Shown here piece by piece: positions 8,600 through 44,771 of a stretch of 52,390 nucleotides of DNA; the stretch's first letter is position 1, and each line of letters starts with the position of its first letter. The position numbers were made by a program, and so were the translations under genes. The notes under the pieces are model-generated. The model saw only the letters and a list, made by a program, of their open reading frames with translations, made no database searches and was not told the DNA's origin. The DNA comes from an uncultured Archangium sp. (GTDB lineage: Bacteria > Myxococcota > Myxococcia > Myxococcales > Myxococcaceae). The DNA is taken from the NCBI GenBank assembly GCA_937875615.1, contig CALNBU010000553.1, forward strand, positions 1 through 52,390, written 5' to 3'.

Positions 8600-8835
8600 A
8601 CATCACCGTCCTCATTCCCCGCTCGCTGCTGACCGCCTGTGAAGGGCGCGCGAAGATCGAGCTGGGAGTGCCGCCCTCCGCCGACGTGGCGGAGATTCTT
8701 GTCACGCTGCTGTCGCTCTACCCGGGGTTGAGGGCCTTCATGGCCAACGAGCAGCGCCCGCTCAGGCAGCACTTCAGCGTGGCGCGGCTCGGGCAGAAGA
8801 TCTTCCTCTTCACCAGCACCGCGGTCGTGGGCTGA
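8596..8835 (+). CDS. Small MoaD/ThiS-like ubiquitin-fold protein with an atypical C-terminus (no GG)
   Basis: GTG start overlaps the exporter stop. NITVLIPRSLLTACEGRAKIELGVPPSADVAEILVTLLSLYPGLRAF follows the MoaD pattern. The protein ends ...TAVVG. Third codon positions are GC-rich. Confidence 0.4.
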   Translation: MNITVLIPRSLLTACEGRAKIELGVPPSADVAEILVTLLSLYPGLRAFMANEQRPLRQHFSVARLGQKIFLFTSTAVVG

Positions 8836-8890
8836 CGTCGGCGGGGTTGCTTGAACGGTCGCCCCGTGCGCCATAGGGTGCCGACGCATC

Positions 8891-11254
8891 ATGGCTGAGG
8901 TACCAAACAGCCCGCCGCGGCCGGCGTGGGCTTCGGGCGCAGGGCTCCCGCGACCGTTGGCGTTGGGCGGCGTGCTGGTGGGCATCTCGGTGGTGGCCGC
9001 GTTCCTGTTGACGCCCGGGCTCTCCGGCCAGCGCATTCCAGAGCTCGCGCCGGAGCAGGTGGGCACGCCTTTTCACGCCTCTTCGGTGGCGGTGCTGAAG
9101 GCCAGCCGCGACTTCGAGGTGCACGACGAGGCCCAGACGCAGCGGCGCCGCGACGAGGCCCGGGCCCGGGTCCGGCCGGTGTTCGACTACTCGCCGCAGG
9201 TGGCCGCGCGGGTGAAGAGCGGCGTCAGCGCGGCGTTCTCGGCGATGCGCGAAGCGGTGGAGGCGACGCCGCTCCACGCCGAGGGCCAGAAGAAGGGCCG
9301 AGACGAGGAGCTGGTCGCCGCGCTGCGGGCGGTGAAGAGTGAGTTCGAAGAGTCGGCGGTGCTCCCCGACGACGAAGATTTCGACGTGCTGGCGGGGAGT
9401 CGGTTCTCTCCGGAGCTGGAGAAGGCCGCGCAGGACCTCATCGCCCGCGCCTACAACTCGAAGATCGTCGCCGCCCGGGAAGAGCTCTCGCGCGTCGACA
9501 ACAACGGCATCTCGGTGCGCATCGTCGGCGGCACCACCGAGTTCGAGATGCCCACCGCGGCGCCGGGAATCCTCGACCTGCGCGAGGCCGGCGCGGAGCT
9601 CGACCGCTTCGCGTCGGTGCCTGGCAACCTGCTGGCGGACAGCCCGGTGCCGGTGCGTCGGGCGGTCCTCCGCTTCGCCCGCAAGCAGCTGCGCGCCAAC
9701 CTCACCATCAACATCGCCGAGACCGAGGCGCGCCGCAAAGCCGCCCCCGACGCGGTGAAGCCGCAGGTCATCTCCATCAAGAAGGGCCAGCGCATCATCG
9801 GCGACGGAGAGCTCATCACCGAAGGGCACGTGCTGGTGACGCGCAGCATCCGGGCGCAGGCCACGGAGTTCGACCTCCTCCAGCTGCAGCTGGGGGGCGC
9901 GGGCATCGTGGCGCTGTTGGTGGCCGGGGCGTGGCTCTTCTTCTCGGCCGCGCTCAAGCAGTTCCGGCCCTCGCGGCGCGACGCGGCCTTCATGGGCCTG
10001 CTGGCGGCGGGGCTGCTGGGTGGCCTGCACCTGTGGGTGCTGGTGGCCGACGCGGTGCACGACCGCTACCCGTCGATTCCCATCGAGGCGCTGCAGTACG
10101 CCTTCCCGGTGGCCGCCGGCGCGATGCTCGCGCGCTTCGTGTTGTCGGAGTCGAGCGCGCTCTTCTTCGCGCTCATCTTCTCGTCGCTGGCCGGCATCCT
10201 GCTGGGCAACTCGCTCTCGTTCTTCCTGCTCTCGATGGTGTCGTCGATGGTGGCGGCGGACCGCATCGCGCGAGCGAAGGACCGCGCCGGCATCTTCCGC
10301 GCCGGGCTGTGGACGGGCGGGGTGTCCTTCGGCTTCGTCATCTTCGTGCAGCTGGCCGCGGCGAAGGGCTTCGGCGTCGAGGCCATGTTGTGTGGAGCGT
10401 TCGCCTTCGTCTCGGCGGCCTTCGTGCTGCCGGCGTTGGTGTTGGCGCTGACGCCCATCGCCGAGAGCCTCTTCGGCTACGCGTCGGACGTGAAGCTGCT
10501 GGAGCTGGCGAACCTCAACCACCCGGCGCTCAAGGAGCTCGTGCTCAACGCGCCGGGGACCTACCACCACAGCATCGTCATGGGCTCGCTGGTGGAGCAG
10601 GCCGCGGAGGCCATCGGGGCCAACCCGCTGTTGGCGAGGAGCTGCGCCTACTACCACGACATCGGGAAGGGTCGGAACCCGGCCTACTTCGGCGAGAACC
10701 AGAAGGCGGAGAACCTGCACGACACGCTGGCGCCCTCGATGAGCGCGGTCATCATCAAGCGCCACGTCACCGAGGGGCTGGAGATGGCGCGCGAGTACAA
10801 GCTCCCCGCGCGGGTGGCCGACGCCATCCCCGAGCACCACGGGACACGGCTGGTGGGCTTCTTCTTCCACAAGGCGCAGAAGGAGCTGGAGGGCCGCGAG
10901 GACGCGAAGCCTCTGGACGAGAGCCTGTTCCGCTACCCCGGCCCCAAGCCGCGCTCCCGCGAGACGGCGTTGGTGATGATCGCCGACGCCTGCGAGGCGG
11001 CGAGCCGCTCGATGCCCGAGCCCACGACGGAGAAGCTGCGGGCGTTGGTCCAGAAGATGATCAACATCATCTTCAGCGAAGGGCAGCTCGATGAGTGCGA
11101 GCTCACCCTCAAGGATCTGCACCTCATCGCCGAGTCCTTCACCCACACCCTGGAGGGCATCTACCACGCGCGACCGCAGTACCCGGCGGGCGCGGTGGGG
11201 GGGGGCAAGCCTCCGGAGCGCGAGGTCGTGAAGAGTCTCGCGGTCGTCAAGTGA
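8891..11254 (+). CDS. pgpH: 7TM-HD membrane phosphohydrolase (PgpH/YqfF family, cyclic-di-AMP phosphodiesterase-like)
   Basis: 787 aa with a large N-terminal extracytoplasmic region, 7 TM helices and a C-terminal HD domain (HHSIVMGSL...AYYHDIGK). It lies immediately upstream of ybeY, as in many bacteria. Confidence 0.88.
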   Translation: MAEVPNSPPRPAWASGAGLPRPLALGGVLVGISVVAAFLLTPGLSGQRIPELAPEQVGTPFHASSVAVLKASRDFEVHDEAQTQRRRDEARARVRPVFDYSPQVAARVKSGVSAAFSAMREAVEATPLHAEGQKKGRDEELVAALRAVKSEFEESAVLPDDEDFDVLAGSRFSPELEKAAQDLIARAYNSKIVAAREELSRVDNNGISVRIVGGTTEFEMPTAAPGILDLREAGAELDRFASVPGNLLADSPVPVRRAVLRFARKQLRANLTINIAETEARRKAAPDAVKPQVISIKKGQRIIGDGELITEGHVLVTRSIRAQATEFDLLQLQLGGAGIVALLVAGAWLFFSAALKQFRPSRRDAAFMGLLAAGLLGGLHLWVLVADAVHDRYPSIPIEALQYAFPVAAGAMLARFVLSESSALFFALIFSSLAGILLGNSLSFFLLSMVSSMVAADRIARAKDRAGIFRAGLWTGGVSFGFVIFVQLAAAKGFGVEAMLCGAFAFVSAAFVLPALVLALTPIAESLFGYASDVKLLELANLNHPALKELVLNAPGTYHHSIVMGSLVEQAAEAIGANPLLARSCAYYHDIGKGRNPAYFGENQKAENLHDTLAPSMSAVIIKRHVTEGLEMAREYKLPARVADAIPEHHGTRLVGFFFHKAQKELEGREDAKPLDESLFRYPGPKPRSRETALVMIADACEAASRSMPEPTTEKLRALVQKMINIIFSEGQLDECELTLKDLHLIAESFTHTLEGIYHARPQYPAGAVGGGKPPEREVVKSLAVVK

Positions 11255-11694
11255 CGTTGCGGGTGCTGTGCACGTCGCGCTCGTCGCAGGCGCCGCGCCT
11301 CGTCGCGTTGGCGCAGCGCTTCGCCGAGGTCCTCAGGCTGCCCACCTCGGAGCTGTCGTTGTCGCTGGTGCGAGACGCGCAGATCCGCGTGCTCAAGCGC
11401 GACTACTTCGGCGTCGACGCGCCCACCGACGTGCTGTCGTTCCCGGCGGGCGACTTTCCCGGGCCAGGTCCCCGGCCGCTCGGTGACATCGTCATCTCGC
11501 TCGACACCGCGCGGCGCGCGGCCGGCGAGTTCGACTCGACCTACGAGCGGGAGCTGGCGCTCTACCTGGCGCACGGGCTGCTGCACCTGCTGGGCTACGA
11601 CCACACGACGAGGCCGCAGGCGCGCCGCATGGAGAAGTTGGAACGCAAACTGTTGGGGCACGCAGGGATGTTGGCGCGGAGCGTCGAGCTGTAG
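11251..11694 (+). CDS. ybeY: rRNA maturation endoribonuclease YbeY
   Basis: GTG at 11251 overlaps the pgpH stop (GTGA). Zinc motif HGLLHLLGYDH. Confidence 0.9.
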   Translation: MTLRVLCTSRSSQAPRLVALAQRFAEVLRLPTSELSLSLVRDAQIRVLKRDYFGVDAPTDVLSFPAGDFPGPGPRPLGDIVISLDTARRAAGEFDSTYERELALYLAHGLLHLLGYDHTTRPQARRMEKLERKLLGHAGMLARSVEL

Positions 11695-11742
11695 TCGCAA
11701 CAACTACCCAAAGAGGTCGCGACTCAGTAAGGGGCCCGGCCG

Positions 11743-13368
11743 ATGAGCGAATCAGCCGCCGCCGCCCCTGCTGCACCGGAAGTCGCCAAAGAGAACAAGA
11801 TGCCATCGAGCATCTGGTTCATCGTCAGCAACGAGTTCGCCGAGCGTTTCTGCTTCTACGGCATCAACTCGATTCTGGTGGCCTACATGGTGAGCCACAT
11901 GAAGTTCCCTGACGGGAAGGCGCTCGCCTGGGGTGCGCTCTTCAAGTCGGCGGCCTACTTCTTCCCGGTGTTGGGGGCCGTCATCTCCGACGTCTTCTGG
12001 GGGAAGTTCCGGACCATCTTCGTCTTCTCGATTCTCTACGCGACTGGTTGCGTGTGCCTCGCGCTCTTCGGGAGCAGCGAGTTCGCGCTGGTGGCGAGCC
12101 TCGGGTTGGTGGCCCTGGGAACCGGTGGCATCAAGCCCTGCGTATCGACCAACGTCGGTGACCAGTTCAGTGCGAAGAACGCGCACCTCATCGAGCGTGC
12201 GTTTTCGCTGTTCTACATGGCCATCAACGCCGGTTCGTCGATCTCCATCTTCATGTGCCCGTGGTTGCTCGACCATCCGAATTGGGGCCCGAAGTGGGCG
12301 TTCGGAATGCCAGCGATCATGATGGTGCTGGCCACCATCGTGTTCGTAGCCGGCAAGGCGAAGTACGTGATGGTTCCGCCAGCCGGCAAGGCGTGGCTCA
12401 AGGAGGTCTTCTCTCCAGATGGGCTGAAGCTCATCGCCAAACTCGGCGTGCTCTATGTCTTCGTCGCGCTCTTCTGGTCGCTGTGGGACCAGTCGAACGG
12501 AGGTGCCCTGGTGCTGCAGGCCAAGTCGCCGCTCATGGACAAGAGCATCTTCGGGATCTTCACCTTCAAGCCTGCGCAGGTACAGGTCGTGAACGGCCTC
12601 TTCATTTTGCTGCTGGCGCCAGTCTTCTCGTACGGCATCTACCCGGCGGTGAACAAGTTCGTGAAGGTGACACCGTTGCGCAAAATCGGCGCGGGGTTGG
12701 TAGTCATCGGCATCTCCTTCATCGTGGTTGGGTGGATCGAGGACGAGATCATGGCCGGTCGCACCGTGTCGGTGTGGTGGCAGCTGCTGGCCTACTTGAT
12801 CCTCACGGCTTCCGAGTTGCTGGTGTCTGTCACCGCACTGGAGTTTTCGTACAAGCAGGCGCCGCTGCGCATCAAGAGCTTCATCATGGCGCTCTTCTTG
12901 TTGTCGACCACGCTGGGAAATCTGGTGGTGGCTGCGGTGAATCTGGTGTCGGTGAAGCCGGTGAAGGTCGAGAAGATTGAGACCGGGGCGCAGACCTGGG
13001 TCACGCTCGAGGGGGCCGCCGACTTCGTGCCTGGTCAGAAGATCGACTTTACCGACAAGGCCGGAATCATGACGGTGTCGCTCGACGACAAGGGACAGCC
13101 CGAAGAGAAGGCCCTTGAGGGAACGTACCTGGTGGCGGAGGTCGAGACATCCCGCGTACGCATCATGACGGTGGAGCGGCAGGACCTGTCGACCAAGGGT
13201 GGCTTCAGCGGCCTGGACTCGGTGTCGACCTATTCCCTGGTTGGGTCTGCCTACTATTGGTTCTTCATCGCCATCATCTGGATTGCCGCGTTGGTGTTCG
13301 CGGTCTACGCGAAGTTCTACAAAGAGCAGGATTTCGTGCGCACTGATGAAGGGGCCGCCGCCGCGTGA
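11743..13368 (+). CDS. POT/PTR2-family proton-dependent oligopeptide transporter with an extra soluble loop domain
   Basis: PTR2 signatures ERFCFYGINSILVAYM and GGIKPCVSTNVGDQF. 541 aa. A ~95-aa hydrophilic insert precedes the last TM helix. Confidence 0.9.
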   Translation: MSESAAAAPAAPEVAKENKMPSSIWFIVSNEFAERFCFYGINSILVAYMVSHMKFPDGKALAWGALFKSAAYFFPVLGAVISDVFWGKFRTIFVFSILYATGCVCLALFGSSEFALVASLGLVALGTGGIKPCVSTNVGDQFSAKNAHLIERAFSLFYMAINAGSSISIFMCPWLLDHPNWGPKWAFGMPAIMMVLATIVFVAGKAKYVMVPPAGKAWLKEVFSPDGLKLIAKLGVLYVFVALFWSLWDQSNGGALVLQAKSPLMDKSIFGIFTFKPAQVQVVNGLFILLLAPVFSYGIYPAVNKFVKVTPLRKIGAGLVVIGISFIVVGWIEDEIMAGRTVSVWWQLLAYLILTASELLVSVTALEFSYKQAPLRIKSFIMALFLLSTTLGNLVVAAVNLVSVKPVKVEKIETGAQTWVTLEGAADFVPGQKIDFTDKAGIMTVSLDDKGQPEEKALEGTYLVAEVETSRVRIMTVERQDLSTKGGFSGLDSVSTYSLVGSAYYWFFIAIIWIAALVFAVYAKFYKEQDFVRTDEGAAAA

Positions 13369-13814
13369 CGGACCTGCGAGTCATCAACGTCGACCTGTCG
13401 GAGCTGCGCCTGGCCTTCGAGGCCGAGACGCAGGATCTTCCCTGGTACCTCGACACCGACACCGGCGCGGTGTTGCTGGCTACGCCCGAGTACGATCCCG
13501 CCCAGCACGGCGGGCTCACCCTGGCCACCATCGAGGCCGACACGCAGCGCTTCCTGCGCGTGCCGCCCTCCAACCCCGACCAGCTCATCGCCGACATGCG
13601 CGAGTTCGCCGATGAGTCTGGCGACGCCCAGCTCAAGGAGTCGCTCGAGCTGGCGCTCTCCGCGCCGAGGCCCGACAAGCGCTTCAAGACGGTGCTGTCG
13701 TGGTTGCCCGAGCAACAGGCGCAGTGGAGCGCCTGGCGTCAACGCCGCACGCTGGAGCGGGTGACGGTCTGGTTGAGCTCCAACGGCCTGGTGGCCAGGG
13801 CGCGTGTGGCATGA
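13365..13814 (+). CDS. UPF0158-family cytoplasmic protein
   Basis: GTGA overlap upstream and ATGA overlap downstream. The pattern WYLDTDTG...RFKTVLSWLPEQQAQWSAWRQ...WLSSNGL resembles UPF0158, as recalled from memory. Confidence 0.55.
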   Translation: MTDLRVINVDLSELRLAFEAETQDLPWYLDTDTGAVLLATPEYDPAQHGGLTLATIEADTQRFLRVPPSNPDQLIADMREFADESGDAQLKESLELALSAPRPDKRFKTVLSWLPEQQAQWSAWRQRRTLERVTVWLSSNGLVARARVA

Positions 13815-15361
13815 CGACGGAGACGGCGAAGACGAAGCTGCCGCCGCAGATTCGGTACATCATCGGCAACGAGGCCGCGGAGCGCTTCAGCTTCTACGGC
13901 ATGCGCAACGTGCTGACCGACTTCCTGTCGGCGCACCTGCTGGTGACGTTGGCCGCCACGCAGTTGGAGCGTGAAGCCATGGCCAAGGAGGTGTTCCACA
14001 CCTTCGCCATGGGCGTGTACTTCTTCCCGTTGCTCGGCGGCTGGTTGGCCGACCGGGTGCTGGGCAAGTACCGCGTCATCCTCTGGCTCTCGCTGGTGTA
14101 CTGCGTGGGGCAGGCGCTGCTGGTGTTCAGCACGGGGAGCCAGACCGGCTTCTACGCCGGCCTGTTGCTCATCGCGCTGGGCAGCGGAGGCATCAAGCCC
14201 TGCGTATCGGCCTTCGTGGGTGACCAGTTCGACTCTTCGAACAAGCACCTGGCGAAGGTGGTGTTCGACGCCTTCTACTTCATCATCAACTTCGGCTCGT
14301 TCTTCGCCTCGCTGCTCATCCCTCCGCTGCTCAAGTCGGGCTACGTGCGCCTGACCTTCGCGGTGCCGGCGGTGTTGATGGCAGTGGCGGTGGTCATCTT
14401 CTACGCGGGCCGCCACAAGTACGTGAACGTGGCGCCGGCGGCGAAGGACCCCGACTCCTTTCTCAACGTGTGCCGCACCGCGCTCTTCGGGCGTGGGTTG
14501 AACGCGGGCTCGGCGCTGGTGCTGGCGGGCGCCGTGTTGGCGCTGGGCTCCTTCGCGCTGTGGCCGTACCTGCACGCGGTACCCACCATCTGTCTCGCGC
14601 TGGTGGTGTTCCTGGTCTTCGGCGGCGTGGGCGCGTCACTGCGGGTGGACCAGGCGCGCGGCGCGCACCCAGACGAGGCCGTCGACGGCGTGAAGGCGGT
14701 GTTGAAGGTGCTGGTGTTGTTCGCGCTGGTGACGCCCTTCCATTCGCTCTTCGACCAGAAGGCCACCACCTGGGTATTGCAGGGCAACGCCATGGAGCTG
14801 CCCGGGTGGAGCTGGTTCAAGACCGCGTCGCAGATGCAGGCGGTGAACCCGATTCTGGTGATGCTGCTCATCCCCTTCAACAACGTGGTGCTCTTCCCGC
14901 TCCTGCGGAGGTTCGGGGTCGAGCCCACGCCGCTGCGTCGCATGGGCACGGGGTTGGTCTTCGCCGGCGGCTCCTGGGTGGTGGTGGCGTTGATGCAGCA
15001 GATGATGGACGGCGGCGCGAAGTTGTCGGTGCTGTGGCAGCTGCTCCCGTACTTCCTGCTCACGCTGGGCGAGGTGCTGGTGTCGGCGACCGGCCTCGAG
15101 TTTGCGTACAGTCAGGCGCCCGCGCGCCTCAAGGGCGTGCTGATGTCGTTCTGGATGCTCGCCACCACGGTGGGCAACCTCTGGGTGCTGCTCGCCAACG
15201 CCAGCGTGAAGAGCGAGGGCGTCACCCGCTACCTCACCGCGCAGGGCTGGGGCGTCATCTCGTCGCAGATGTACTTCTTCGCCTTCTTCGCCTTCGCCTC
15301 CGCGGCGGTGTTCGCGCTCTACGCGCGCGGCTACAAGGTGGCCGACCACTACCGGAAGTAG
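13811..15361 (+). CDS. POT/PTR2-family oligopeptide transporter (second paralogue)
   Basis: Internal ATG overlaps the upstream stop. Signatures ERFSFYGMRNVLTDFL and GGIKPCVSAFVGDQF. Confidence 0.9.
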   Translation: MTTETAKTKLPPQIRYIIGNEAAERFSFYGMRNVLTDFLSAHLLVTLAATQLEREAMAKEVFHTFAMGVYFFPLLGGWLADRVLGKYRVILWLSLVYCVGQALLVFSTGSQTGFYAGLLLIALGSGGIKPCVSAFVGDQFDSSNKHLAKVVFDAFYFIINFGSFFASLLIPPLLKSGYVRLTFAVPAVLMAVAVVIFYAGRHKYVNVAPAAKDPDSFLNVCRTALFGRGLNAGSALVLAGAVLALGSFALWPYLHAVPTICLALVVFLVFGGVGASLRVDQARGAHPDEAVDGVKAVLKVLVLFALVTPFHSLFDQKATTWVLQGNAMELPGWSWFKTASQMQAVNPILVMLLIPFNNVVLFPLLRRFGVEPTPLRRMGTGLVFAGGSWVVVALMQQMMDGGAKLSVLWQLLPYFLLTLGEVLVSATGLEFAYSQAPARLKGVLMSFWMLATTVGNLWVLLANASVKSEGVTRYLTAQGWGVISSQMYFFAFFAFASAAVFALYARGYKVADHYRK

Positions 15362-15888
15362 TTCGCCGGGCGGTCGAGGCGGTAGATGAAGCGTGGCCGC
15401 GCCACGCCGAAGACCTGCACCGCCTCCTGGTGGCTCACCGTGGCCCCCAGCTTCTCGAGGGCCCGACGGCTGCGCAGGTTCTCCTCGCTGATCTGGAACC
15501 ACACCGTCTTCGCCCAGCGGAAGGCGTGGTCCAGCATCAGGCGCTTGAGCTCGGTGTTGGTGCCATCACCCCAGCGCGCGCGGGCCAGGAAGGTGTAGCC
15601 GATGATGACCGAGGCGTCTGCGGGGCTCCAGTCGTAGAACTTCGACGCGCCGATGAGGTGACCGGGCGCGTCCTCCACCACCACGCCGCCGCCGCTGTGC
15701 AGGAGCCCGTTGAAGTAGCGCTCGAACAGCTGCGGCTCGTGGCGGTTCTTCTCGGAGTGCTGCGCCCACACCTGCGGGTCGCTCGCGGCGTGCAGCGCCG
15801 CCAGATCTCCGGCGCGTAGGGGACGGACGGTGAGTCGGTCGCCGCGCAGCGTCGGCTGCCAATCGGGTGGCTGGGGGTCGGGCGTCAT
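15349..15888 (-). CDS. GNAT-family N-acetyltransferase
   Basis: 179 aa. GYTFLARARWGDGTNTELKRLMLDHAF...NLRSRRALEKLGA is a typical GNAT (RimJ/L-like) core. Confidence 0.8.
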   Translation of the reverse strand: MTPDPQPPDWQPTLRGDRLTVRPLRAGDLAALHAASDPQVWAQHSEKNRHEPQLFERYFNGLLHSGGGVVVEDAPGHLIGASKFYDWSPADASVIIGYTFLARARWGDGTNTELKRLMLDHAFRWAKTVWFQISEENLRSRRALEKLGATVSHQEAVQVFGVARPRFIYRLDRPANYFR

Positions 15889-15931
15889 GGGCGCATCCTC
15901 ACCGATGGCGGCGCGGCGGGGCTCGAAAAGT

Positions 15932-16516
15932 CTACGTCGCGGCGCGGACGTAGTGGGCGAGGCCGCGCGGCTCGCCGCCCGACCAGTCGCGGGTGTTCAT
16001 GGCGTCGAAGAGGCGGCGGGTCTCCACCAGCCACGGACCGAAGCCGGCGTTGACGTCCAGCACCAGCACCAGATCTTCGTCCGCCAGGTAGCCGCCGAGG
16101 GGCGAGTGGTGTCCGCCGCCGCTCCCGAAGAGCGGCGCGCGGGAAAAGTTGGTGATGAAGCGGTGCGCTGGATCATTCGCCCGTCGGAGGTGCGCGCGCA
16201 GGGCGTCGACGTCGCGCGGGCGCACGGCCTCGACGCGCCAGTCGGAAGGCAACAGCGCCGCTGATTCACCCACGACGTCCTCGAGGCTCATGGCGCGTAC
16301 GCCGAAGCGACTGAAGGGGTTGGGGGCTGCCTTCACGTCGAGGCTGCGCAGCACGTTGCAGACGCTGGTGGGGCCACAGATGGCGTTCCAGGTCTGTGAC
16401 TGAAGCGGGGCGTACCGCCGGGCGACGGGCAGCGCCCAGGCCGCGCGGAGCAGCGCCGGGTCCTGGTACCCCGGGTCGGCGCGGATGGAGGTGAAGGGCA
16501 GGGGAGCGCGACGCAC
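15932..16516 (-). CDS. Phytochelatin-synthase-like papain-fold cysteine peptidase (short bacterial form)
   Basis: A candidate Cys-His-Asp triad lies in PCS-like contexts. These are QSQTWNAICGPTSVCNVLRSL (Cys), GGGHHSPLGGY (His) and LVLVLDVNAGFGPWLVETRRLFDAM (Asp plus the PCS-like tail). Confidence 0.65.
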   Translation of the reverse strand: MRRAPLPFTSIRADPGYQDPALLRAAWALPVARRYAPLQSQTWNAICGPTSVCNVLRSLDVKAAPNPFSRFGVRAMSLEDVVGESAALLPSDWRVEAVRPRDVDALRAHLRRANDPAHRFITNFSRAPLFGSGGGHHSPLGGYLADEDLVLVLDVNAGFGPWLVETRRLFDAMNTRDWSGGEPRGLAHYVRAAT

Positions 16517-16556
16517 GTCGAGGACTTAACCGCCGCCTCGCCGCTTCGCAGGCGAC

Positions 16557-19418
<2,862 letters not shown>

Positions 19419-19433
19419 GAGGGTGGCTCATGC

Positions 19434-19451
19434 TCAGAACAGGTGTTCAGG
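19434..19451 (-). promoter_or_regulatory. LexA-box-like near-dyad upstream of uvrA
   Basis: The minus strand reads CTGAACACCTGTTCTGA and the plus strand CAGAACAGGTGTTCAGG. Each matches 15 of 17 positions of the Myxococcus LexA box CTRHAMRYBYGTTCAGS as I recall it. The site ends about 15 nt before the uvrA ATG. Confidence 0.3.
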
Positions 19452-19486
19452 TCAAGCAGACTTTCGGTGAGGCGCCCGCCGCCCGG

Positions 19487-20572: not shown

Positions 20573-20717
20573 GGGAAACCTCTGGGGTTGCGGTGAGAGA
20601 GACCCGCCCAGGGTTCAGGACCCATTCCAGAATTCAGGCCTGCAAAATCATATGGTTGCAGACGGCCAAGGCCGTCAGTGGAGACACGCCGTCGCGCCGC
20701 GCGGTCGGTGTGGCTCC

Positions 20718-22832: not shown

Positions 22833-22930
22833 CCTACCGAGTGCCGCCCAGGCTGGCGAGGTCGGCGCCGAACGGCCGGGCCGAAGACTTCACTTGCGGC
22901 GATGCTTTGGAGTTAACTCCGAGGTCTCTC

Positions 22931-25810: not shown

Positions 25811-25953
25811 GGTGCCGAGAGGCCGAGGAGATTCGATCTTGACGCGCAGGTGACGATTCTGTTGTACGCGCACCGACGCGACTTCAGCCGAATTTCCATA
25901 CACACCCTACACGCGCCCAAGCCCGGTTGGGCGCAGCAGCAGGAGCAGCAACG

Positions 25954-27384
25954 ATGAAAGCAAAATTCCTCGCGCTCGGAGCCATCGGCTTCGTCGCTCT
26001 CACCTTCATGGGGTGTCCTCAGCAGGAGTGTGGACCCAACAACTGCAACGGTTGCTGTCAGGAAGACGGCACCTGTGTCGCGCCTCCGGACAACGCGAAG
26101 CACGCGACCTGCGGCACGTCGGGCAACGCGTGCGACGACTGCTCCGCCAACGATGGCCAGTGCGACAGCAGCAACTTCACCTGCGTCGGCGGTGACGGCG
26201 GTACCGGCGGTGGCGGCGGCGTGGAGTGCGGAAACGGCTGCTGGACCTCGAGCAACCCTGCGACCCGTACCTGCCGTGTGGCGGGGACCAGCCAGCAGAA
26301 CGCCACGTTCTGCGGCATCGGCGCGGTCGTCTGTGGCGCGTGCCCGACCGGTCAGGCCTGCAACGACGGCGTGTGTGGCGCGCCGACGACGGTGTCGCTG
26401 GGCGCCGTCTGCCAGGGCAACGCGGACTGCGCCGGGCTGCCCGTGTCCAACAACGAGATCGTGGTCGGCACGAGCCAGTGGACGCCGACGCCCTACTGCA
26501 AGACCGCTTCGCAGAACGAGAGCTTCCTGAGCGGCTTCCGTCTCCCCGGGTTCTCCTACCCCGAGGGCTACTGCACCAAGCGCTGCGTCGGCAACGCGAG
26601 CTGCGGCGCCGGCAACATGTGCGTGGCCGGCCTCGGCGTCTTCGGTGAGCTCGACAACTTCTGCGCCAAGGGCTGCACGGACAACTCGCAGTGCCGCACC
26701 GGCTACTCCTGCGTCGGCCTCTCCGCGACCCAGGCCGCGTGCCTCCCGTCGTCGGTCGATTGGTCGACGCCCACGGTGGACGCCGGTACCGGCAACACCA
26801 ACGTCGCCGGCGGCGCGTGCACTGGCAACGCGCAGTGCCAGCCTCCGTCCAACGCCTACTGCCTCACCAACAACAACTTCCCCGGCGGTATGTGCATCGC
26901 CGAGTGCAGTTGGATGTCTGACGAGAACTGGTGTGGCCCGATGAGCGAGTGTGTGACCTTGCTCGGCCCTGACTCGGAGACGGCGCCCACGCTGGTGAGC
27001 CTCTGCCTCCAGAGCTGCTTCATGCTGCCCGACGGCGGTCAGCTCGACACGCCTGATGCGGGCATGGCCCCCGGGGTCGACGCGGGCGAGGAGCCGGATG
27101 CAGGCGAAGAGCCCGATGCGGGCGAGCCTGACGCCGGTGGCGAAGAGCCCGACGCGGGCGAGCCTGACGCGGGTGGCGAAGAGCCTGACGCGGGCGAGCC
27201 TGACGCGGGCGACGAGACGCCTGACGCGGGCGGCGAAGAGCCTGACGCGGGTGACATGACGCCCGACGCCGGCGACATGACGCCCGACGCCGGTGAGCCC
27301 GTTGACGCTGGCGTGACGTACCGCCCGTGCCGCGACCAGTACGATTGCAACGCTGACCCCAACGAGGCCGGCTTCTGTTTCTGA
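25954..27384 (+). CDS. Cysteine-rich lipoprotein with a C-terminal acidic xDAG tandem repeat
   Basis: ATG preceded by aggagcagca. Lipobox LTFMG|C. There are dozens of Cys in CxxC/CxC-like spacing. 12 PDAG plus 2 VDAG motifs occur near the C-terminus. Confidence 0.8.
   Translation: MKAKFLALGAIGFVALTFMGCPQQECGPNNCNGCCQEDGTCVAPPDNAKHATCGTSGNACDDCSANDGQCDSSNFTCVGGDGGTGGGGGVECGNGCWTSSNPATRTCRVAGTSQQNATFCGIGAVVCGACPTGQACNDGVCGAPTTVSLGAVCQGNADCAGLPVSNNEIVVGTSQWTPTPYCKTASQNESFLSGFRLPGFSYPEGYCTKRCVGNASCGAGNMCVAGLGVFGELDNFCAKGCTDNSQCRTGYSCVGLSATQAACLPSSVDWSTPTVDAGTGNTNVAGGACTGNAQCQPPSNAYCLTNNNFPGGMCIAECSWMSDENWCGPMSECVTLLGPDSETAPTLVSLCLQSCFMLPDGGQLDTPDAGMAPGVDAGEEPDAGEEPDAGEPDAGGEEPDAGEPDAGGEEPDAGEPDAGDETPDAGGEEPDAGDMTPDAGDMTPDAGEPVDAGVTYRPCRDQYDCNADPNEAGFCF
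27052..27312 (+). repeat. In-frame degenerate tandem repeat encoding (E)EPDAG(G) units
   Basis: Repeated gagcc(t/c)gacgcgggc units. The longer 36-nt unit gagcctgacgcgggtggcgaagagcc(c/t)gacgcgggc recurs. All of it lies inside the 25954..27384 CDS. Confidence 0.85.
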
Positions 27385-29218: not shown

Positions 29219-29318
29219 GTTGCCACAGCGGGCAGGTCCCCACGGCGCCAATCGCTACCGCCAGCATGACGAATTCCACTGTTGATGAACGCGCTCTGTG
29301 ACGTGGCGGTGCGCGTCG

Positions 29319-30356: not shown

Positions 30357-30530
30357 GGCCCCACGAGAGTCTATTTTGAGTTTGATTTGCAAGACCGACT
30401 GTCCATCCAGTCAGCGCGCGCACCGGGCGCCGTGGCGGGGTGGCCACGTGGTGCGGCCATCAAGACGCGCGCGCGCGTGCGCTGCCCGCGCTACAACGCG
30501 TTCGCCCACTTCTTGCTTCCGAGGGGACTC

Positions 30531-38896: not shown

Positions 38897-38912
38897 GCGC
38901 GGCGCCGTCCGG

Positions 38913-39701
38913 TCACTTCTGGTTCGGGCTGCGCTTGCCTTCGGACTCGAGCTGTTTGCCGTAGGCCTCGGTCTTCTGCGCGAAGTTGCCGCTGGCGAGC
39001 ACCATGCCCTCGGCGAAGAGCGAGCCCATGCCGACGATGGCCATGTTCTGCTGCAGGTAGTTGTTGAGCCACTTCTTGGTCATCTTGAGCCCCAGCGCAT
39101 CGTACGAGAGGAGCTTCTTGATGAGCTTGTCGACCTCCGCGTCGAGCTGGTCGACCGGCGCGACCTTGTTGATGAGCCCGATGTCGTACGCCTCCTTCGC
39201 GGTGGCCATGCGGTCGGTCATCAGGAACTCACGCGCGCGGCTCAGGCCGATGCGCGCCGGCCACAGGAGCGCGCCGCCGTCGCCGGGAGGCACCCCGAAG
39301 CCCGACATGTGCGGGTCGCTGAAGGTCGCGTCTTCGCTGGCGTAGACGAAGTCGCAGGCGAGCGCGATGGAGGCGCCCATGGAGTGCGCGCCCGGCGCGT
39401 AGACCTTGGCGATGGTCACCTTCTCGCAGTTGATCTCGTCGCGAATGATGTCTTCGGCCTCTTTGAAGATCTGCAGCATGTCCTTGTAGATGCCGAGCTT
39501 CTTCACCCACTCGAAGTCGTACTTCTCGGGCGCGATGAAGCTCTTGCCCTTGCCGGTGACGACCACGACGCGGCAGTCGGATTCATGGGCGATGCGGAAG
39601 ACCTTCGAGAGGCTGTTGTGCGTCTTGCCGTCGAGGCCGCCGATCTCGATGGTGAAGATTTCGTCTTTCTCGGTGATGTCGATGAGGCCAAATTCAGACA
39701 T
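38913..39701 (-). CDS. Enoyl-CoA hydratase/isomerase (crotonase) superfamily protein
   Basis: 262 aa with a crotonase-like core VVVVTGKGKSFIAP...ALACDFVYASEDATFSDPHMSGFGVPPGDGG. The canonical catalytic Glu pair is not obvious. Confidence 0.75.
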   Translation of the reverse strand: MSEFGLIDITEKDEIFTIEIGGLDGKTHNSLSKVFRIAHESDCRVVVVTGKGKSFIAPEKYDFEWVKKLGIYKDMLQIFKEAEDIIRDEINCEKVTIAKVYAPGAHSMGASIALACDFVYASEDATFSDPHMSGFGVPPGDGGALLWPARIGLSRAREFLMTDRMATAKEAYDIGLINKVAPVDQLDAEVDKLIKKLLSYDALGLKMTKKWLNNYLQQNMAIVGMGSLFAEGMVLASGNFAQKTEAYGKQLESEGKRSPNQK

Positions 39702-39729
39702 GGGGTGCTCCTGGTTGGGGGTGGGTGCT

Positions 39730-41349
39730 TCAGCTGTCGATGGCGCGTGAGGAGCCGGCGCGGGCGCGCAGCTCGAACTTCTGGATCTTTCCGGTCGAGG
39801 TCCTGGGGAGCGGCCCGAAGTTCACCGCGCGCGGCACCTTGAAGCCCGGCAGGCGCTCCCGGCAGAACGCGATGAGCGCCTCGGCGGTCAGGTCTGCGTC
39901 AGGCCGCAGCTCGACGAAGGCGCACGGTGTCTCGCCCCACCTGGGGTCGGGTTGTGCGACGACCGCGGCGGCGAGCACGGCGGGGTGCCGGTAGAGGACG
40001 TCTTCGACCTCGAGGCTCGAGATGTTCTCTCCGCCGGAGATGATGATGTCCTTGCTGCGGTCCTTGAGCTTCACGTAGCCGTCGGGCGAGACGACGCCGA
40101 GATCTCCGGTGTGGAACCAGCCTCCGTCGAACGCCGCGCGCGTGGCGGTGGGGTTCTTGAGGTACCCCTTCATGGTGATGTTCCCGCGGAACATCACCTC
40201 GCCCATCGTCTCGCCATCGGCGGGCACCGTCGATGGGTCCATCACCGCGATGGCCTCCTGCAGGTGGTAGCGCACGCCCTGCTGCGCGTTGAGCCGGGCC
40301 CGCTCGGAGAGCGGCAGGGCGCTCCAGCCCTCGCGCCGCTCACAGACCGCCGCGGGTCCGTAGACCTCGGTGAGGCCGTAGACGTGCGTCAGGTCGAAGC
40401 CGAGCTCCGCCATCCGCTCGAGCATGGACGCCGGCGGCGCCGCGCCCGCCACCATCGCCGACACGCGGTGCGCGATGCCCTCCGCGTGCTCCCGCGCGTT
40501 GATGAGCATGGAGTGCACCACCGGCGCGCCGCAGTAGTGGGTGACGCGGTGCGCGCGGATGAGGTCGAACACCGTCTTCGGGTCGACTCGGCGCAGGCAC
40601 ACGTTGGTGCCCGCGCGCGCCGCGATGGTCCACGCGAAGCACCAGCCGTTGCAGTGAAAGAGCGGCAGCGTCCAGAGATAGACGGGGTGCTTCGGGAGGT
40701 CCCACTCGAGGACGTTGGAGACCGCGTTCAGGTACGCGCCGCGATGGTGGTACACGACCCCCTTCGGGTCGCCGGTCGTCCCGGAGGTGTAGTTGAGGCA
40801 GATGGCGTCCCACTCGTCGGCGGGCGCGGCGGTGAACGTCGGGTCACCCTCGGCCAGCAGCGCCTCGTACGAGCGCCAGGAGACGGCGGGCAGCGCGAGC
40901 TCCGGCGCGTCGACGTCGATGAGCAGAAGCTCCCGGCCCAGGCGGTCGACCGCGGCCTGGGCGACCGCGGAGAACTCGCGGTCGACCAACAGCGCCTTCG
41001 CCTCTCCGTGGGCGAGCATGAACGAGATGCCCTCGGCGTCGAGGCGGGTGTTGAGCGCGTTGAGCACCGCGCCGCTCATCGGCACCCCGAAGTGCGCCTC
41101 GATGAGGGCGGGCACGTTGGGCATCAGCGCCGCGACGGTGTCTCCGTGGCCGATGCCGTGCTTGCGCAGCGCGCTCGCGAGTCGGCGGCACCGGGCGTCG
41201 GTCTCACGCCACGTCTGCCGAAGGTCGCCATGGATGATGGCGATTCGTTCCGGGTGCACCTGCGCCGCGCGTGAGAGGAACGTGAGCGGTGTCAGGGCCA
41301 CGAAGTTCGCGTCGTTCTTGTCGAGTCCGAGCTCGTAGATGGAGGCCAT
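39730..41349 (-). CDS. AMP-forming acyl-CoA synthetase (short/medium-chain type)
   Basis: Start at MASIYELGL. LTPLTFLSRAAQVHPERIAIIHG, YTSGTTGDPKGV, TGDLG and the C-terminal GKIQKFELR are adenylate-forming motifs. Confidence 0.9.
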   Translation of the reverse strand: MASIYELGLDKNDANFVALTPLTFLSRAAQVHPERIAIIHGDLRQTWRETDARCRRLASALRKHGIGHGDTVAALMPNVPALIEAHFGVPMSGAVLNALNTRLDAEGISFMLAHGEAKALLVDREFSAVAQAAVDRLGRELLLIDVDAPELALPAVSWRSYEALLAEGDPTFTAAPADEWDAICLNYTSGTTGDPKGVVYHHRGAYLNAVSNVLEWDLPKHPVYLWTLPLFHCNGWCFAWTIAARAGTNVCLRRVDPKTVFDLIRAHRVTHYCGAPVVHSMLINAREHAEGIAHRVSAMVAGAAPPASMLERMAELGFDLTHVYGLTEVYGPAAVCERREGWSALPLSERARLNAQQGVRYHLQEAIAVMDPSTVPADGETMGEVMFRGNITMKGYLKNPTATRAAFDGGWFHTGDLGVVSPDGYVKLKDRSKDIIISGGENISSLEVEDVLYRHPAVLAAAVVAQPDPRWGETPCAFVELRPDADLTAEALIAFCRERLPGFKVPRAVNFGPLPRTSTGKIQKFELRARAGSSRAIDS

Positions 41350-41465
41350 CGCGACCACGAACGGTAGAGAGGTGGTGGAAGACCGTCTTGAACGGGCGCG
41401 GCCCCTGTCTGGAATGTTTGGGACGACGCGCCGCGCCACCGAAGCGCGGCGGTACAGTGCGGCGC

Positions 41466-42347
41466 ATGCGTCTCACTCGTCTCGATGACCTCGCGCGCAG
41501 CACGGGCAACTACGCGGCGTGGCTGGAGGGGCCGGCGGCGACCACCAGGCAGGTCGGCGTGCACGGCTTCCGCTTCGACGCGCACGAGCAGCGTGACCCG
41601 GTGACGCTCGATGTCTTCCACGCGCTGGTGTGTCTGCGCGGCGGCGCGTCGATCTGTCGGATGATGAACGACTCCGTCCAGGAGTTCCGGCTGGGCCCCG
41701 GTGACGTGCTGGTCAACCCGATGGCGGTGCCGATGCGCTGGTCCTGGGTGGGGGCGGTCGAGGTGTTGAACCTCGCGGTGCACCCCGGGTATCTCGACGA
41801 CGTGGTGCGCGAGTCGCTGGGCGGCACGCCGAAGCTGAGGCCGCTCGCGCTCCCGTGGGCGCCTGACCATCAGCTCGCGGAGCTGGGCCTCGAACTTCAG
41901 CGGGAGCTGGCGACGCCACAGTTGCTGGGCGCACAGCGGGGGACGAAGGCGTTGGGGGAGCGCATCGCGCTGCACGTGCTGCGTCGCTACGTCGAGGTCG
42001 AGCGCGGCGGGAACGATCGCGCGTTTGGTGATGAAGAGCGCCGGCGGCTCGAGGGCTACGTCGATGAACACCTCGACGGGTCACTCCGCGTGGAGCACCT
42101 CGCCGCGCTGGTACACCTCGGTGAACACCACTTCACGCGCACCTTCCGCGCCACCTTCGGGAAGACGCCGCAGTCGTGGGTGCGTGAGCGTCGGCTCGAT
42201 CGCGCGCGCGCGCTGGTGATGACCACCGCGTCGACCATCTCGGACATCGCGATGGAGACCGGTTTCTCCGACCAGAGCCACCTCACGCGGTGCTTCCGCG
42301 CGGAGTTCGGCGCCACGCCCGCAGCGCTTCGCCGGGGCCGGAGCTGA
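41466..42347 (+). CDS. AraC-family transcriptional regulator
   Basis: Internal ATG at 41466. C-terminal double HTH (HLGEHHFTRTFRATFGKTPQSWVRERRLDRAR...ISDIAMETGFSDQSHLTRCFRAEFGATP). Divergent from the acyl-CoA synthetase gene. Confidence 0.85.
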   Translation: MRLTRLDDLARSTGNYAAWLEGPAATTRQVGVHGFRFDAHEQRDPVTLDVFHALVCLRGGASICRMMNDSVQEFRLGPGDVLVNPMAVPMRWSWVGAVEVLNLAVHPGYLDDVVRESLGGTPKLRPLALPWAPDHQLAELGLELQRELATPQLLGAQRGTKALGERIALHVLRRYVEVERGGNDRAFGDEERRRLEGYVDEHLDGSLRVEHLAALVHLGEHHFTRTFRATFGKTPQSWVRERRLDRARALVMTTASTISDIAMETGFSDQSHLTRCFRAEFGATPAALRRGRS

Positions 42348-42403
42348 GCCTGCGTGGGCGCCACGCGCCAGCGTAGTCAGCGCGTGGCTCCGTCTGGAAA
42401 GAT

Positions 42404-42871
42404 GTGACCATGTTCAAGCTGGACGACGAGAAGGCGCTGCTCGAGAGCTTCCGCACGCGCGACCGCAAGCACGTCGAGCTGCCGGCAGACCTGAAGTTCC
42501 CCATCATCCTCCGCGACTACGTCGCGTGGGCGCACCCTTCGGGCGGGCGGCTGTACCTCGTGTTCGCGCCGGCGGAGGGCCACCCCACCGGCGTCGTCTT
42601 CGACACCAACGGCGGCGGTGGTCAGGTGCCGCAGCTGTGCGCGTGGTGCCACTCGAGCGCCGGCGCAGGCGGCGTGGCGATGCTGACGGCCACCGCCTCC
42701 AACAAGAAGCGCGTGGGGGTGTGGGTGTGCGGTGACTTGAGCTGCAAGGCGAAGGTGGAGGAGGCCTGCAACCTCGCCGGCAGACCGCTGCACGACGCCC
42801 TCGCCACGCTGGTGGCGCGCATGAGCCAGTTCGCCGCCGAGGCCCTGCGCATCGATCTGCTGCGCCGGTGA
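42404..42871 (+). CDS. FBP-domain protein (EF-G-binding-protein-like, C-terminal treble-clef zinc finger)
   Basis: 155 aa. The motif LCAWCHS...GGVAMLTA...VGVWVCGDLSCKAKV matches the CxxC...CxxxxC FBP_C pattern as recalled. Confidence 0.55.
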   Translation: MTMFKLDDEKALLESFRTRDRKHVELPADLKFPIILRDYVAWAHPSGGRLYLVFAPAEGHPTGVVFDTNGGGGQVPQLCAWCHSSAGAGGVAMLTATASNKKRVGVWVCGDLSCKAKVEEACNLAGRPLHDALATLVARMSQFAAEALRIDLLRR

Positions 42872-42908
42872 GCCGTGCGCTGGCCGACTTCTTGCTCTGT
42901 CCACGGAC

Positions 42909-43301
42909 ATGAGCGAGCCCATCATCGACCAGTTCATGACCGAATCTCCGTACACCATCGGCAGAGACCAGCCGCTGTCGGTGGCGGGGGCGCTGATGGC
43001 GGAGCACGCCATCCGCCACCTCCCGGTGCTCTACCGGGGCCGGCTGGTGGGGGTGTTGTCTCAGCGCGACGTGGCGGTGGTGAGCGGGCTCCCGCGGGTG
43101 GACGCGGCGAAGATCTCCGTCAGCGAGGCGATGAGCGAAGACGTCTTCACCGTGGGGCGGCGCTCCACGCTCCGCAAGGTGGCGGCGCAGATGGCCGAGC
43201 ACAAGTACGGCTGCGCGGTGGTCCTGGAGAAGGAGCGGGTGGTGGGGGTCTTCACCACCGTCGACGCCCTGGAGGCGCTGGCCGACCTGCTCGAACCCTG
43301 A
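42909..43301 (+). CDS. CBS-pair domain protein
   Basis: 130 aa with two CBS repeats (IRHLPVLYRGRLVGVLSQRDV and YGCAVVLEKERVVGVFTTVDAL). Confidence 0.85.
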   Translation: MSEPIIDQFMTESPYTIGRDQPLSVAGALMAEHAIRHLPVLYRGRLVGVLSQRDVAVVSGLPRVDAAKISVSEAMSEDVFTVGRRSTLRKVAAQMAEHKYGCAVVLEKERVVGVFTTVDALEALADLLEP

Positions 43302-43352
43302 GTCGCAGGGTCTGCGCCCCGGCCCCCGGCGCGCGAAGAATCTGCGTGGCCG

Positions 43353-43883
43353 TCAGGCCTTCGGCGCCGCGGCGGCCTGCTGCTTCTTCTTCCGCTCGAG
43401 CTGCCAGCCGTGGAGGAACATCAGCACGATGCCGGCGATGATGGACAGGTCCGCCACGTTGAACACCCCGGTGCGGAGGCTCCCGAGGCCCATGTTCATG
43501 AAGTCCACCACGCTGCCGCCGAAGCGCGCGCGGTCGACCCAGTTGGAGAAGCCGCCGGAGGCGATGAAGGCGTAGCCGGCCACCTCCATGGTGACCAGCT
43601 GCTTGCTGACCAGCGCGTAGATGGCGAGGCCCAGCAGCAGCAGCCCCACGCCGATGGTCAAAAGCCAGTAGCGCAGCGTCGGCGGGAGGTTGGCGCCCAG
43701 CGAGAGAAACGCGCCCTCGTTGGTCGCGTACTCCAGCCTGAAGGTGTCGCTCAGCCACGACTGGCGGGGCATGCCCTTGAGGTGAGCGGTGGCGAGCTGC
43801 TTGGTCCACTGGTCGATGACCAGCTGAGCCACGAAGACCGAGAGGAAGAGGGGCAGACGCTTCAACACGAGCACGTCGGCCAC
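43353..43883 (-). CDS. lspA: Lipoprotein signal peptidase II
   Basis: 176 aa with four TM helices. Motifs DQWTK, NEGAFLS, FSNWVDR and FNVADLSI. Confidence 0.9.
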   Translation of the reverse strand: MADVLVLKRLPLFLSVFVAQLVIDQWTKQLATAHLKGMPRQSWLSDTFRLEYATNEGAFLSLGANLPPTLRYWLLTIGVGLLLLGLAIYALVSKQLVTMEVAGYAFIASGGFSNWVDRARFGGSVVDFMNMGLGSLRTGVFNVADLSIIAGIVLMFLHGWQLERKKKQQAAAAPKA

Positions 43884-43886
43884 TTG

Positions 43887-44690
43887 TCAGAACCGGCCGC
43901 TCACTGCCAGCCCGTTCGGCATGGGCGCGGCCTGCAGCTCCACCGGCCCCACCCGACCGTGCAGCAGGGTGGGCATCAGCACGCCCACCGCCTGTCCGAA
44001 CAGGGTGCCGAGGATGACGTCCGAGGCCCAGTGCTTGTCGGCCGCGAGGCGGAGGAGCGCCGTGGCGGCGGCCAGCGGTTGCCCCACCACCCACAGCAGC
44101 CAGGCGTGGCGGTACCCGCGCAGCGTGGCCACGGTGGCCGCCGAGGTGGCGAGCGCGAAGACGAAGGTGGCGTGGCCGCTGAAGAACGAGAGGTTGTGGT
44201 CTTCGGGGTGCCGCTCGGCGAGCAGCGCCTCGTCGGCGCCCACCGTGTAGGGGCGGGCGCGGCCCACGGTGAACTTCACCAACTGGTTGACGTTGATGGC
44301 CGCGAAGGTGGCCTCCAGCACCAGCACGGTGTCGATGAGGAACCGCTTCCACCAGGCCTCGTCGCGGCCGCCGATGAGGGCGTTGAGGCCCAACATGGCC
44401 ACCGGCAAGGCGGCGAAGCCGATGATGTTGCTGGCCATGTCCGGCCCGGAGAGGCCCGAGGCGCTGGGAGAGAGCGACGGCACGAAGAGCCCGCGCACGC
44501 CGTTGTCGAAGTCGTTGGTGGCGCACCAGCGGCAGTCGGCCGGCGACAGCTGCCGCTTGACCGCGAACTCCGAGACCAGCCACGCCACGCCGAGGGTCGC
44601 CGTCACCGGGAGGTCCACCCGGGGGTCCCACTTCAGCTCGTAGGTGGTGGGGGTCTGGGCGAGGGACAGCGCGAGAAGCACGGGGAGCAT
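43887..44690 (-). CDS. PAP2-family membrane phosphatase
   Basis: Motifs VGRARPY, FFSGHAT and RLAADKHWASDV (KX6RP / SGH / SRX5HX3D-type). Three-nt gap to lspA. Confidence 0.85.
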   Translation of the reverse strand: MLPVLLALSLAQTPTTYELKWDPRVDLPVTATLGVAWLVSEFAVKRQLSPADCRWCATNDFDNGVRGLFVPSLSPSASGLSGPDMASNIIGFAALPVAMLGLNALIGGRDEAWWKRFLIDTVLVLEATFAAINVNQLVKFTVGRARPYTVGADEALLAERHPEDHNLSFFSGHATFVFALATSAATVATLRGYRHAWLLWVVGQPLAAATALLRLAADKHWASDVILGTLFGQAVGVLMPTLLHGRVGPVELQAAPMPNGLAVSGRF

Positions 44691-44771
44691 CGCCCCGACG
44701 CTACGCTACGCTTGGACGATTTCACGCGGCTTGTGTATGGGCTGCCGTCGATTCTTCTACAGGGGTCCCCC

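Follow-up and report, generated by a model that had tools for sequence, protein, structure and literature searches.

Our analysis supports a model whereby the aryl polyene (APE) locus of an uncultured Archangium sp. would have been divided in two by an exchange of places between adjacent chromosomal blocks, without any insertion at the apeM|apeN boundary. The window is a whole contig of 52,390 bp from a metagenome-assembled genome (MAG; public record DAINSD010000001.1, assembly GCA_036741495.1). It carries apeC to apeM at 604-8599 and, on the same (+) strand, a halogenase gene followed by apeN to apeR at 44772-50083; Pfam scans confirmed the earlier sequence-only reading that the two halves lie about 36 kb apart on one strand. 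The account that we favour, with some reserve, is a real exchange between a block of ~11 kb, holding a TonB-dependent receptor (TBDR) gene and apeC-M, and a block of ~44 kb running from a small open reading frame (ORF) to a TAL-like lyase gene, in which both blocks would have kept their orientation and which may have proceeded by duplication and loss. The landmarks of the two blocks are as follows.

1-471, + strand: TBDR, C-terminal 156 aa, cut by the contig end; 79% identical by tblastn to residues 728-883 of the TBDR of locus L001
6335-8599, + strand: apeM, MMPL family
8596-8835, + strand: small ORF of 79 aa, 70-75% identical in amino acids to small ORFs of L084-L088
44691-44771: divergent intergenic region between PAP2 (-) and the halogenase (+), an ancestral adjacency and not a breakpoint
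44772-46007, + strand: flavin-dependent halogenase (Pfam)
50084-50554, - strand: LapA-like small membrane protein
50564-52174, - strand: aromatic amino-acid ammonia-lyase, a TAL-like accessory ape gene (Pfam Lyase_aromatic, 500 bits)
52157-52390, + strand: 5' end of a lipoprotein gene (lipobox LFLMAC, then GGGAVGGGS repeats) that runs off the contig end

Gene order in the relatives and the ancestral locus

Genes were called by third-position GC and verified against Pfam and against the genes already annotated in the public record. The reference set came from an ApeM scan with one genome per species, which gave 80 loci (loci and contigs of the comparison carry numbers with the prefix L), and all window proteins were then compared with those loci by tblastn. 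Close relatives are MAGs labelled Archangium sp., Myxococcaceae or Myxococcota, with ApeM 55-74% identical to that of the window; in the distant reference loci this identity is 40-49%. The context of the relatives' loci was obtained by look-ups around orthologues of the TAL-like lyase (TAL in what follows).

Some 60 loci, in Burkholderiales, Xanthomonadales, Rhodocyclales, Myxococcus and Corallococcus, show a contiguous canonical order C, D, E, F, G, HI, J, (TAL), K, L, M, (halogenase), N, O, P, Q, R, with which the published apeA-R layout and its assignment of ApeG, ApeL, ApeM and ApeN to export agree (PMC8253772). The order C-M then N-R that the sequence-only reading had taken as its reference is thus real for these other taxa, but its claim that a canonical cluster is interrupted here between M and N is wrong, because M and N are already apart in all close relatives: in the dozen or so with sequence beyond apeM, N-R does not occur in the first 10 kb 3' of that gene. 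The genes that do lie 3' of apeM in the close relatives differ from those of the window.

On single contigs, the relatives' order runs from pbpC through lspA and PAP2 to the halogenase and N, O, P, Q, R, then (CBS) a LapA-like gene, a reversed TAL gene, a small gene, the TBDR gene and apeC to apeM. This permuted locus is found on one contig in L082 (a 9.4-Mb MAG from Oxford Nanopore reads), L083 (JBEHYH010000007.1) and L092 (a 548-kb contig), each with a complete TBDR gene of ~870 aa directly 5' of apeC, and lspA-PAP2 followed by halogenase-apeN is common to L082 and L092. The TAL/TBDR adjacency is additionally present in L001, L003 and L091, and in L001 and L003 the reversed TAL gene and the TBDR gene lie directly 5' of apeC; the protein of L001 matches the Pfam TonB_C, plug and barrel families. 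At the other side of the neighbourhood, six loci from five relatives' genomes (L084-L088, L094) share the series rimP-nusA-infB-DUF503-rbfA-truB, an ORF of 79-81 aa, then 7TM-HD-ybeY-POT-UPF0158-POT and, further on, uvrA. In the 9.4-Mb MAG five landmark genes are collinear, with apeM at ~3.997 Mb, TAL at ~4.010, the halogenase at ~4.017, pbpC at ~4.021 and 7TM-HD at ~4.054 Mb, and contig JAUXRX010000023.1 carries 7TM-HD (42.7-45.1 kb) and apeM (110.5-112.7 kb) on the same strand.

Judged by this synteny, the ancestral state of the clade is one locus of ~22 kb that was already permuted relative to the canonical order, and the 36 kb of the window is the conserved core neighbourhood that lies 5' of the halogenase-N-R half in the relatives, not inserted material. 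Because the 36 kb precedes that half in the relatives, the PAP2/halogenase junction at 44.7 kb is ancestral. The sequence-only reading had named junctions at both 8.6 and 44.7 kb and proposed a synteny check, and of the two only the left one, apeM|small ORF, turns out to be novel; its broader suggestion of a rearrangement or lineage-specific arrangement is borne out by the comparison with relatives.

In our model, the present order would have arisen in two steps. As the comparison shows, the clade ancestor already carried the halogenase with N, O, P, Q and R on one strand, the LapA-like and TAL genes on the opposite strand, and TBDR with C, D, E, F, G, HI, J, K, L and M on the first strand again, the whole lying directly 3' of the chromosomal series from truB, the small ORF, 7TM-HD and ybeY through uvrA, A2M and pbpC to lspA and PAP2. 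In the second step, which we infer for this genome, the ~11-kb TBDR-apeC-M unit and the ~44-kb block from the small ORF to TAL would have traded places, a move that would have fused the apeM 3' end with the small ORF's start codon. That both blocks keep their orientation would fit either a duplication in tandem after which each block lost one of its copies or an excision with reinsertion. The observed order has the pattern of a block transposition: the window reads truncated TBDR and C-M followed by small ORF to TAL, the relatives read small ORF to TAL followed by TBDR and C-M, the strands are all the same, internal order is kept and there is a single new internal adjacency.

The apeM junction, the contig ends and rival explanations

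The only adjacency that we have seen nowhere else is that between apeM and the small ORF, at ~8555-8596. Homology of ApeM to the relatives stops at ~8554 (...PLFVPL), leaving the protein with a lineage-specific tail of 14 aa, and homology of the small ORF begins at its start codon (from ~8590, weakly a few bases before), so that at most 36 bp can be assigned to neither side, while both flanking ORFs are complete. The TGA of apeM (8597-8599) overlaps the GTG of the small ORF (8596) in a 4-bp stop/start overlap. In the relatives the small ORF is always 5' of 7TM-HD and truB is 5' of the small ORF; a TGGCATGCT motif found ~20-25 bp 5' of the small-ORF start in two of them (L084/L085) is absent from the window because apeM now abuts the small ORF. 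No repeat or insertion-sequence remnant was found at the junction, nor any repeat common to both sides of it or to the junction and the contig ends, and a scan of 8200-9100 for sigma-70 promoters and terminators gave nothing above shuffle expectation. The small ORF itself has a weak match to the ubiquitin-like NCBIfam family SAMP1 (E=3e-4, below cutoff).

A second assembly, ENA ERZ27283054 (MEGAHIT, k119), contains a 782-bp contig (L090) that is 100% identical to window 8250-9031; it takes in 350 bp of apeM and extends 430 bp past the junction, through the small ORF and into the first part of 7TM-HD. Because this contig is identical across the junction, the join is probably real. The same assembly yielded, through an exact-protein look-up of apeC, a 1713-bp contig (L096, k119_91800) identical to window 100-1812. 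Because of the 4-bp stop/start overlap and the lack of a terminator, the C-M unit is predicted probably to read through into small ORF-7TM-HD-ybeY.

Several observations weigh against the block exchange. The junction is known from one organism only, that is from one MAG and from low-coverage contigs of a second assembly that may stem from the same reads. Moreover, the contig reproduces the relatives' order exactly but for a cyclic shift, and both its ends lie in the TAL-TBDR interval; a simple swap would yield this only by coincidence, whereas a collapsed tandem duplication or a circular path would be expected to give it. Finally, the two other junctions that a swap predicts, truB|TBDR and TAL-lipoprotein|gene 3' of apeM, fall beyond the contig ends.

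The ends themselves therefore raise a question of topology or assembly, since they are neighbours in the relatives. The left end cuts the TBDR gene 156 codons before its stop, the right end lies ~0.2 kb past TAL inside the lipoprotein gene, and ~2.2 kb of the relatives' cycle is absent from the contig, namely the 727 N-terminal codons of TBDR and the rest of the lipoprotein gene. We found no terminal overlap between the contig ends. The lipoprotein gene starts a few dozen bases 5' of the fragment called by NCBI (~52241-52390) and contains Gly-rich 27-nt tandem repeats at 52255-52389; the right end falls inside this repeat, which probably caused the assembly break. Two assemblies end at most 100 bp apart inside the TBDR gene (window positions 1 and 100), which may point to a repeat boundary near the left end or to a site there that varies between strains. 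No clear homologue of the lipoprotein was found in the relatives' TAL-TBDR interval. The idea that it is the gene lying 3' of apeM in the relatives ('MAAKKK...', ~293 aa), which would have shown the second swap junction, was rejected by comparison, and a search for the N-terminal TBDR fragment of the same MAG led to a single fragment (P0322/L091) that belongs to a different organism and carries the ancestral TAL|TBDR adjacency.

These features of the ends bear on an alternative that we regard as unlikely, in which the junction is real and the split is a product of linearisation: a ~55-kb segment running from the small ORF to TAL and on through the lipoprotein and TBDR genes to C-M would be tandemly duplicated, amplified or circular, the ape locus would still be contiguous in at least one copy, and the contig would be the collapsed repeat unit, opened at the hard-to-assemble Gly-rich repeat and TBDR region. 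The exact cyclic permutation with a single new adjacency, the position of both ends with only ~2.2 kb missing, the stop inside the 27-nt repeat and the end of the second assembly close to the left end all speak for it. Rather more doubtful, to our minds, is its stronger form, in which the contig would represent an actual ~55-kb tandem duplication, circular or amplified form with the whole APE locus, and possibly a duplication-and-random-loss intermediate in a natural population; such a form would explain both a real apeM|small-ORF junction and contig ends that both lie in the TAL-TBDR interval. A two-copy duplication, however, should branch from truB to the small ORF and from apeM to its downstream gene and so break contigs, whereas the 52-kb contig and the 782-bp contig at k=119 run through; an episome of 55 kb with uvrA, ssb, dacB, pbpC and ybeY on it is implausible on biological grounds; and the lipoprotein at the right end lacks a clear homologue between TAL and TBDR in the relatives. 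We consider it improbable that the join at ~8555-8596 is a chimera of assembly or binning in a genome whose true order is that of the relatives. In favour of this, the source is a single fragmented third-party MAG, the join is absent from all nine informative long loci of relatives (9/9), and the junction is very short and clean; yet the identical 782-bp contig spans it with flanks on both sides, a repeat as long as a k-mer is not shared by the two sides, both ORFs, stop/start overlap included, have been kept exactly, and a random chimera would rarely link points ~55 kb apart in a ~10-Mb genome.

Two further explanations can be given very little weight. The data give no direct support to the idea that the halves are left over from two distinct ape loci while a complete cluster lies at another place in the genome. 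In that case they should hardly be exactly complementary, with no gene duplicated or missing, nor should each be orthologous to the corresponding half of the relatives at similar identity (55-87%) and with intact ORFs; we hold this to be very improbable. The insertion of a 36-kb island or mobile element at the M|N boundary has in its favour the superficial look of a canonical cluster broken at one point, and is less credible again, being ruled out by synteny: in all relatives these 36 kb belong to the syntenic core chromosome, and M and N are non-adjacent in every close relative. The domain, tRNA and repeat scans agree with what the sequence-only reading had stated in calling a simple insertion unlikely, as the interval contains no tRNA and no integrase, transposase or recombinase domain, no direct repeat flanks 8.6 and 44.7 kb, and composition is not odd, with GC of ~70% over the window (range 0.63-0.72) and no discontinuity of GC or GC-skew.

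We therefore return to the exchange of blocks as the preferred reading. The sequence-only reading had asked whether the separated halves are still co-regulated and functional, a doubt that is weakened, at least as to co-regulation, by the relatives, in which the halves are already separate transcription units with upstream regions of their own, one being the PAP2|halogenase divergent region and the other the TAL|TBDR divergent region. Because of these separate units, and because every ape ORF is full length and the catalytic motifs (KS Cys, ACP Ser, TAL ASG) are intact, the pathway is most likely still functional, and we infer that the physical separation need not change regulation much.

Gene content of the halves and of the interval

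By gene content, half 1 would serve initiation, acyl carriage, lipid attachment and export. Its genes are 55-87% identical in amino acids to those of L001-L016, in the same order, and apeM, listed above, follows the genes given here (KS, ketosynthase; CLF, chain length factor; ACP, acyl carrier protein; KR, ketoreductase; DH, dehydratase).

604-1308, + strand: apeC, CLF-like (Pfam Ketoacyl-synt_2)
1305-2111, + strand: apeD, of the Pfam acyltransferase/lipid-attachment set
2098-2367, + strand: apeE, ACP (PP-binding)
2364-2633, + strand: apeF, ACP (PP-binding)
2641-3192, + strand: apeG, without Pfam match, 69-75% identical to the relatives' positional orthologue
3189-4667, + strand: apeH+I fusion, AMP-binding and ApeI-like (PF22818, above cutoff), 492 aa
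4667-5395, + strand: apeJ, of the lipid-attachment set (ApeD, ApeJ and ApeK: Acyltransferase, Glycos_transf_2, 4HBT_2)
5392-5799, + strand: apeK, of the same lipid-attachment set
5772-6338, + strand: apeL, LolA

Both ACPs have the DSI Ser motif, and ApeC is without the active-site Cys motif of KS. The fusion of apeH and apeI is found in nearly all retrieved loci; for the portion corresponding to ApeH, the best NCBIfam match, 4-coumarate-CoA ligase, stays below cutoff, and a starter derived from TAL would agree with it. The slot between J and K (5395/5392 in the window) is a hot spot, occupied by TAL in canonical clusters, by a LipA-type acyltransferase with DUF1801 in many clade members (L082 429-1777) and, in MAG STL-MYX2, by an operon of ~9.7 kb whose OEP match and gene sizes are consistent with a tripartite resistance-nodulation-division (RND) efflux system (L010 1-9032 with L092), and it is empty in the window and in L001-L003.

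Half 2 would by its gene content serve elongation, with KS, DH and KR functions, together with a LolB-like protein. Compared with L082, L083 and L092 its genes are 47-86% identical, with order kept, and after the halogenase they are these.

45989-46519, + strand: apeN, DUF3261, LolB-like
46516-47673, + strand: apeO, KS with Cys155 present
47680-48138, + strand: apeP, ApeP-like dehydratase (PF22817, above cutoff)
48135-48860, + strand: apeQ, KR (adh_short/KR)
48857-50083, + strand: apeR, KS with Cys165 present

The TAL-like lyase has the ASG motif of the methylidene-imidazolone (MIO) group and is 79-87% identical to the relatives' TAL; its best NCBIfam matches are partial ones to the BagA/FevW TAL and the FlxA TAL, below cutoff. 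The longest ORF codes for 536 aa, extending ~35-50 codons N-terminally beyond the orthologues (~500 aa), and the public record has 438 aa; the true start probably lies ~40-50 codons inside the longest ORF.

Together the two halves contain what an APE cluster comprises: a type II polyketide synthase-like core (KS ApeO and ApeR with ApeC), ACPs, KR, DHs, activation by ApeH and lipid attachment, along with the export set ApeG, ApeL, ApeM and ApeN (a membrane protein, a LolA-like, an MMPL/RND-like and a DUF3261 protein). Contiguity in the order C...M, N...R is lacking, with core genes filling the 36.2 kb from apeM to the halogenase. The product predicted from the genes is an aryl-polyene pigment or lipid.

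We count ~25 genes from the end of apeM to the halogenase, slightly fewer than the 27 of the sequence-only reading, all of whose named genes (uvrA, ssb, ybeY, hslO, dacB, A2M and pbpC) are present. Beyond the small ORF, the core neighbourhood occupies the block 8891-44690 and reads, by Pfam, in three parts.

8891-44690 (whole block), first part: 7TM-HD, ybeY, POT, UPF0158, POT, GNAT, phytochelatin-synthase-like (PCS-like), uvrA, CsgG-like, hypothetical
8891-44690 (whole block), second part: dacB, ssb, hypothetical, hslO, OmpA-like, A2M (2399 aa), pbpC
8891-44690 (whole block), third part: ECH, acyl-CoA synthetase, AraC, FBP_C, CBS, lspA, PAP2

Within this block, two paralogous peptide transporters of the POT family stand on either side of the UPF0158 gene (11743-15361), an arrangement kept in relatives with the POT strand differing in some (L094), and the first POT gene falls in the lowest-GC stretch of the window (~0.63). 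A hypothetical gene (25927-27384, 485 aa, without Pfam or NCBIfam match) holds degenerate tandem repeats at 27067-27279 with 15-36 nt spacing and units of the type GAGCC(T/C)GACGCGGGCG. The genes ECH, acyl-CoA synthetase, AraC, FBP_C and CBS at 38913-43301, between pbpC and lspA, are absent from the 9.4-Mb relative, which has DUF429 there. The proposal that ECH and the acyl-CoA synthetase (38913-41439) are coumarate or ape-starter enzymes is unsupported, the NCBIfam matches being to generic PRK08162 (above cutoff) and generic crotonase (below cutoff).

Relation to known APE clusters and implications

The reference system is apeA-R of E. coli CFT073 and Xenorhabdus doucetiae (Johnston et al. 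2021, PMC8253772; Grammbitter et al., bioRxiv 10.1101/2020.12.19.423268). Similarly to it, the window has a CLF-like ApeC, the KS proteins ApeO and ApeR, two ACPs, the KR ApeQ, the DHs ApeI and ApeP, an adenylating ApeH, the acyltransferases ApeD and ApeJ, the thioesterase ApeK and export by ApeG, ApeL, ApeM and ApeN, in the same order within each half. It differs in that the halves are 36 kb apart with the M|N adjacency lost, ApeH and ApeI are fused, a halogenase, a TAL-like lyase and a TBDR are added, and apeA and apeB were not identified. Closer in content are the clusters with TAL and halogenase of Burkholderiales, Xanthomonadales and Myxococcus/Corallococcus (L019-L080), whose TAL-like lyase is 61-69% and halogenase 59-66% identical to those of the window, with core identities of 40-49% for ApeM and ~68-80% for ApeQ; those clusters are contiguous (C-J, TAL, K-M, halogenase, N-R), whereas the TAL gene of the window is inverted 3' of apeR and its C-M unit lies elsewhere. 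The APE content of the window also resembles that of xanthomonadin and flexirubin clusters. With the permuted clusters of other MAGs labelled 'Archangium sp.' (e.g. JASGKS010000001.1, JBEHYH010000007.1, JAXLYB010000005.1) the window shares both units, the reversed TAL and the upstream series pbpC...lspA-PAP2, at 55-87% identity; in those the units are adjacent in one ~22-kb locus with truB before the core, whereas in the window TBDR-C-M sits at the place of truB. In our literature search, APE biosynthetic gene clusters (BGCs) of Myxococcota appeared only as antiSMASH counts, and no split or permuted ape locus was described. ApeM of the clade is no closer to that of Myxococcus/Corallococcus (43-45% identical) than to that of Burkholderiales (up to 49%; loci L036, L039, L046, L060, L068 and L075 against L017-L080), a comparison which suggests that APE clusters have been exchanged horizontally between Myxococcota and Proteobacteria.

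The locus of the window is an organisational variant of a known APE cluster, probably the outcome of an ordinary local rearrangement that left the genes intact, in a single uncultured genome. APE clusters are seen as the bacterial BGC family with the widest distribution and, as a rule, both descriptions and detection tools treat them as a single compact, collinear locus. The clade shows a stepwise loss of that collinearity, from canonical to permuted to physically split, together with the variable insertions in the J|K slot, and cluster-calling tools would report one half of such a locus as a partial or 'fragment' BGC. The split locus would offer a natural test of whether the module for initiation, attachment and export (C-M) and the module for elongation (N-R) must be linked.

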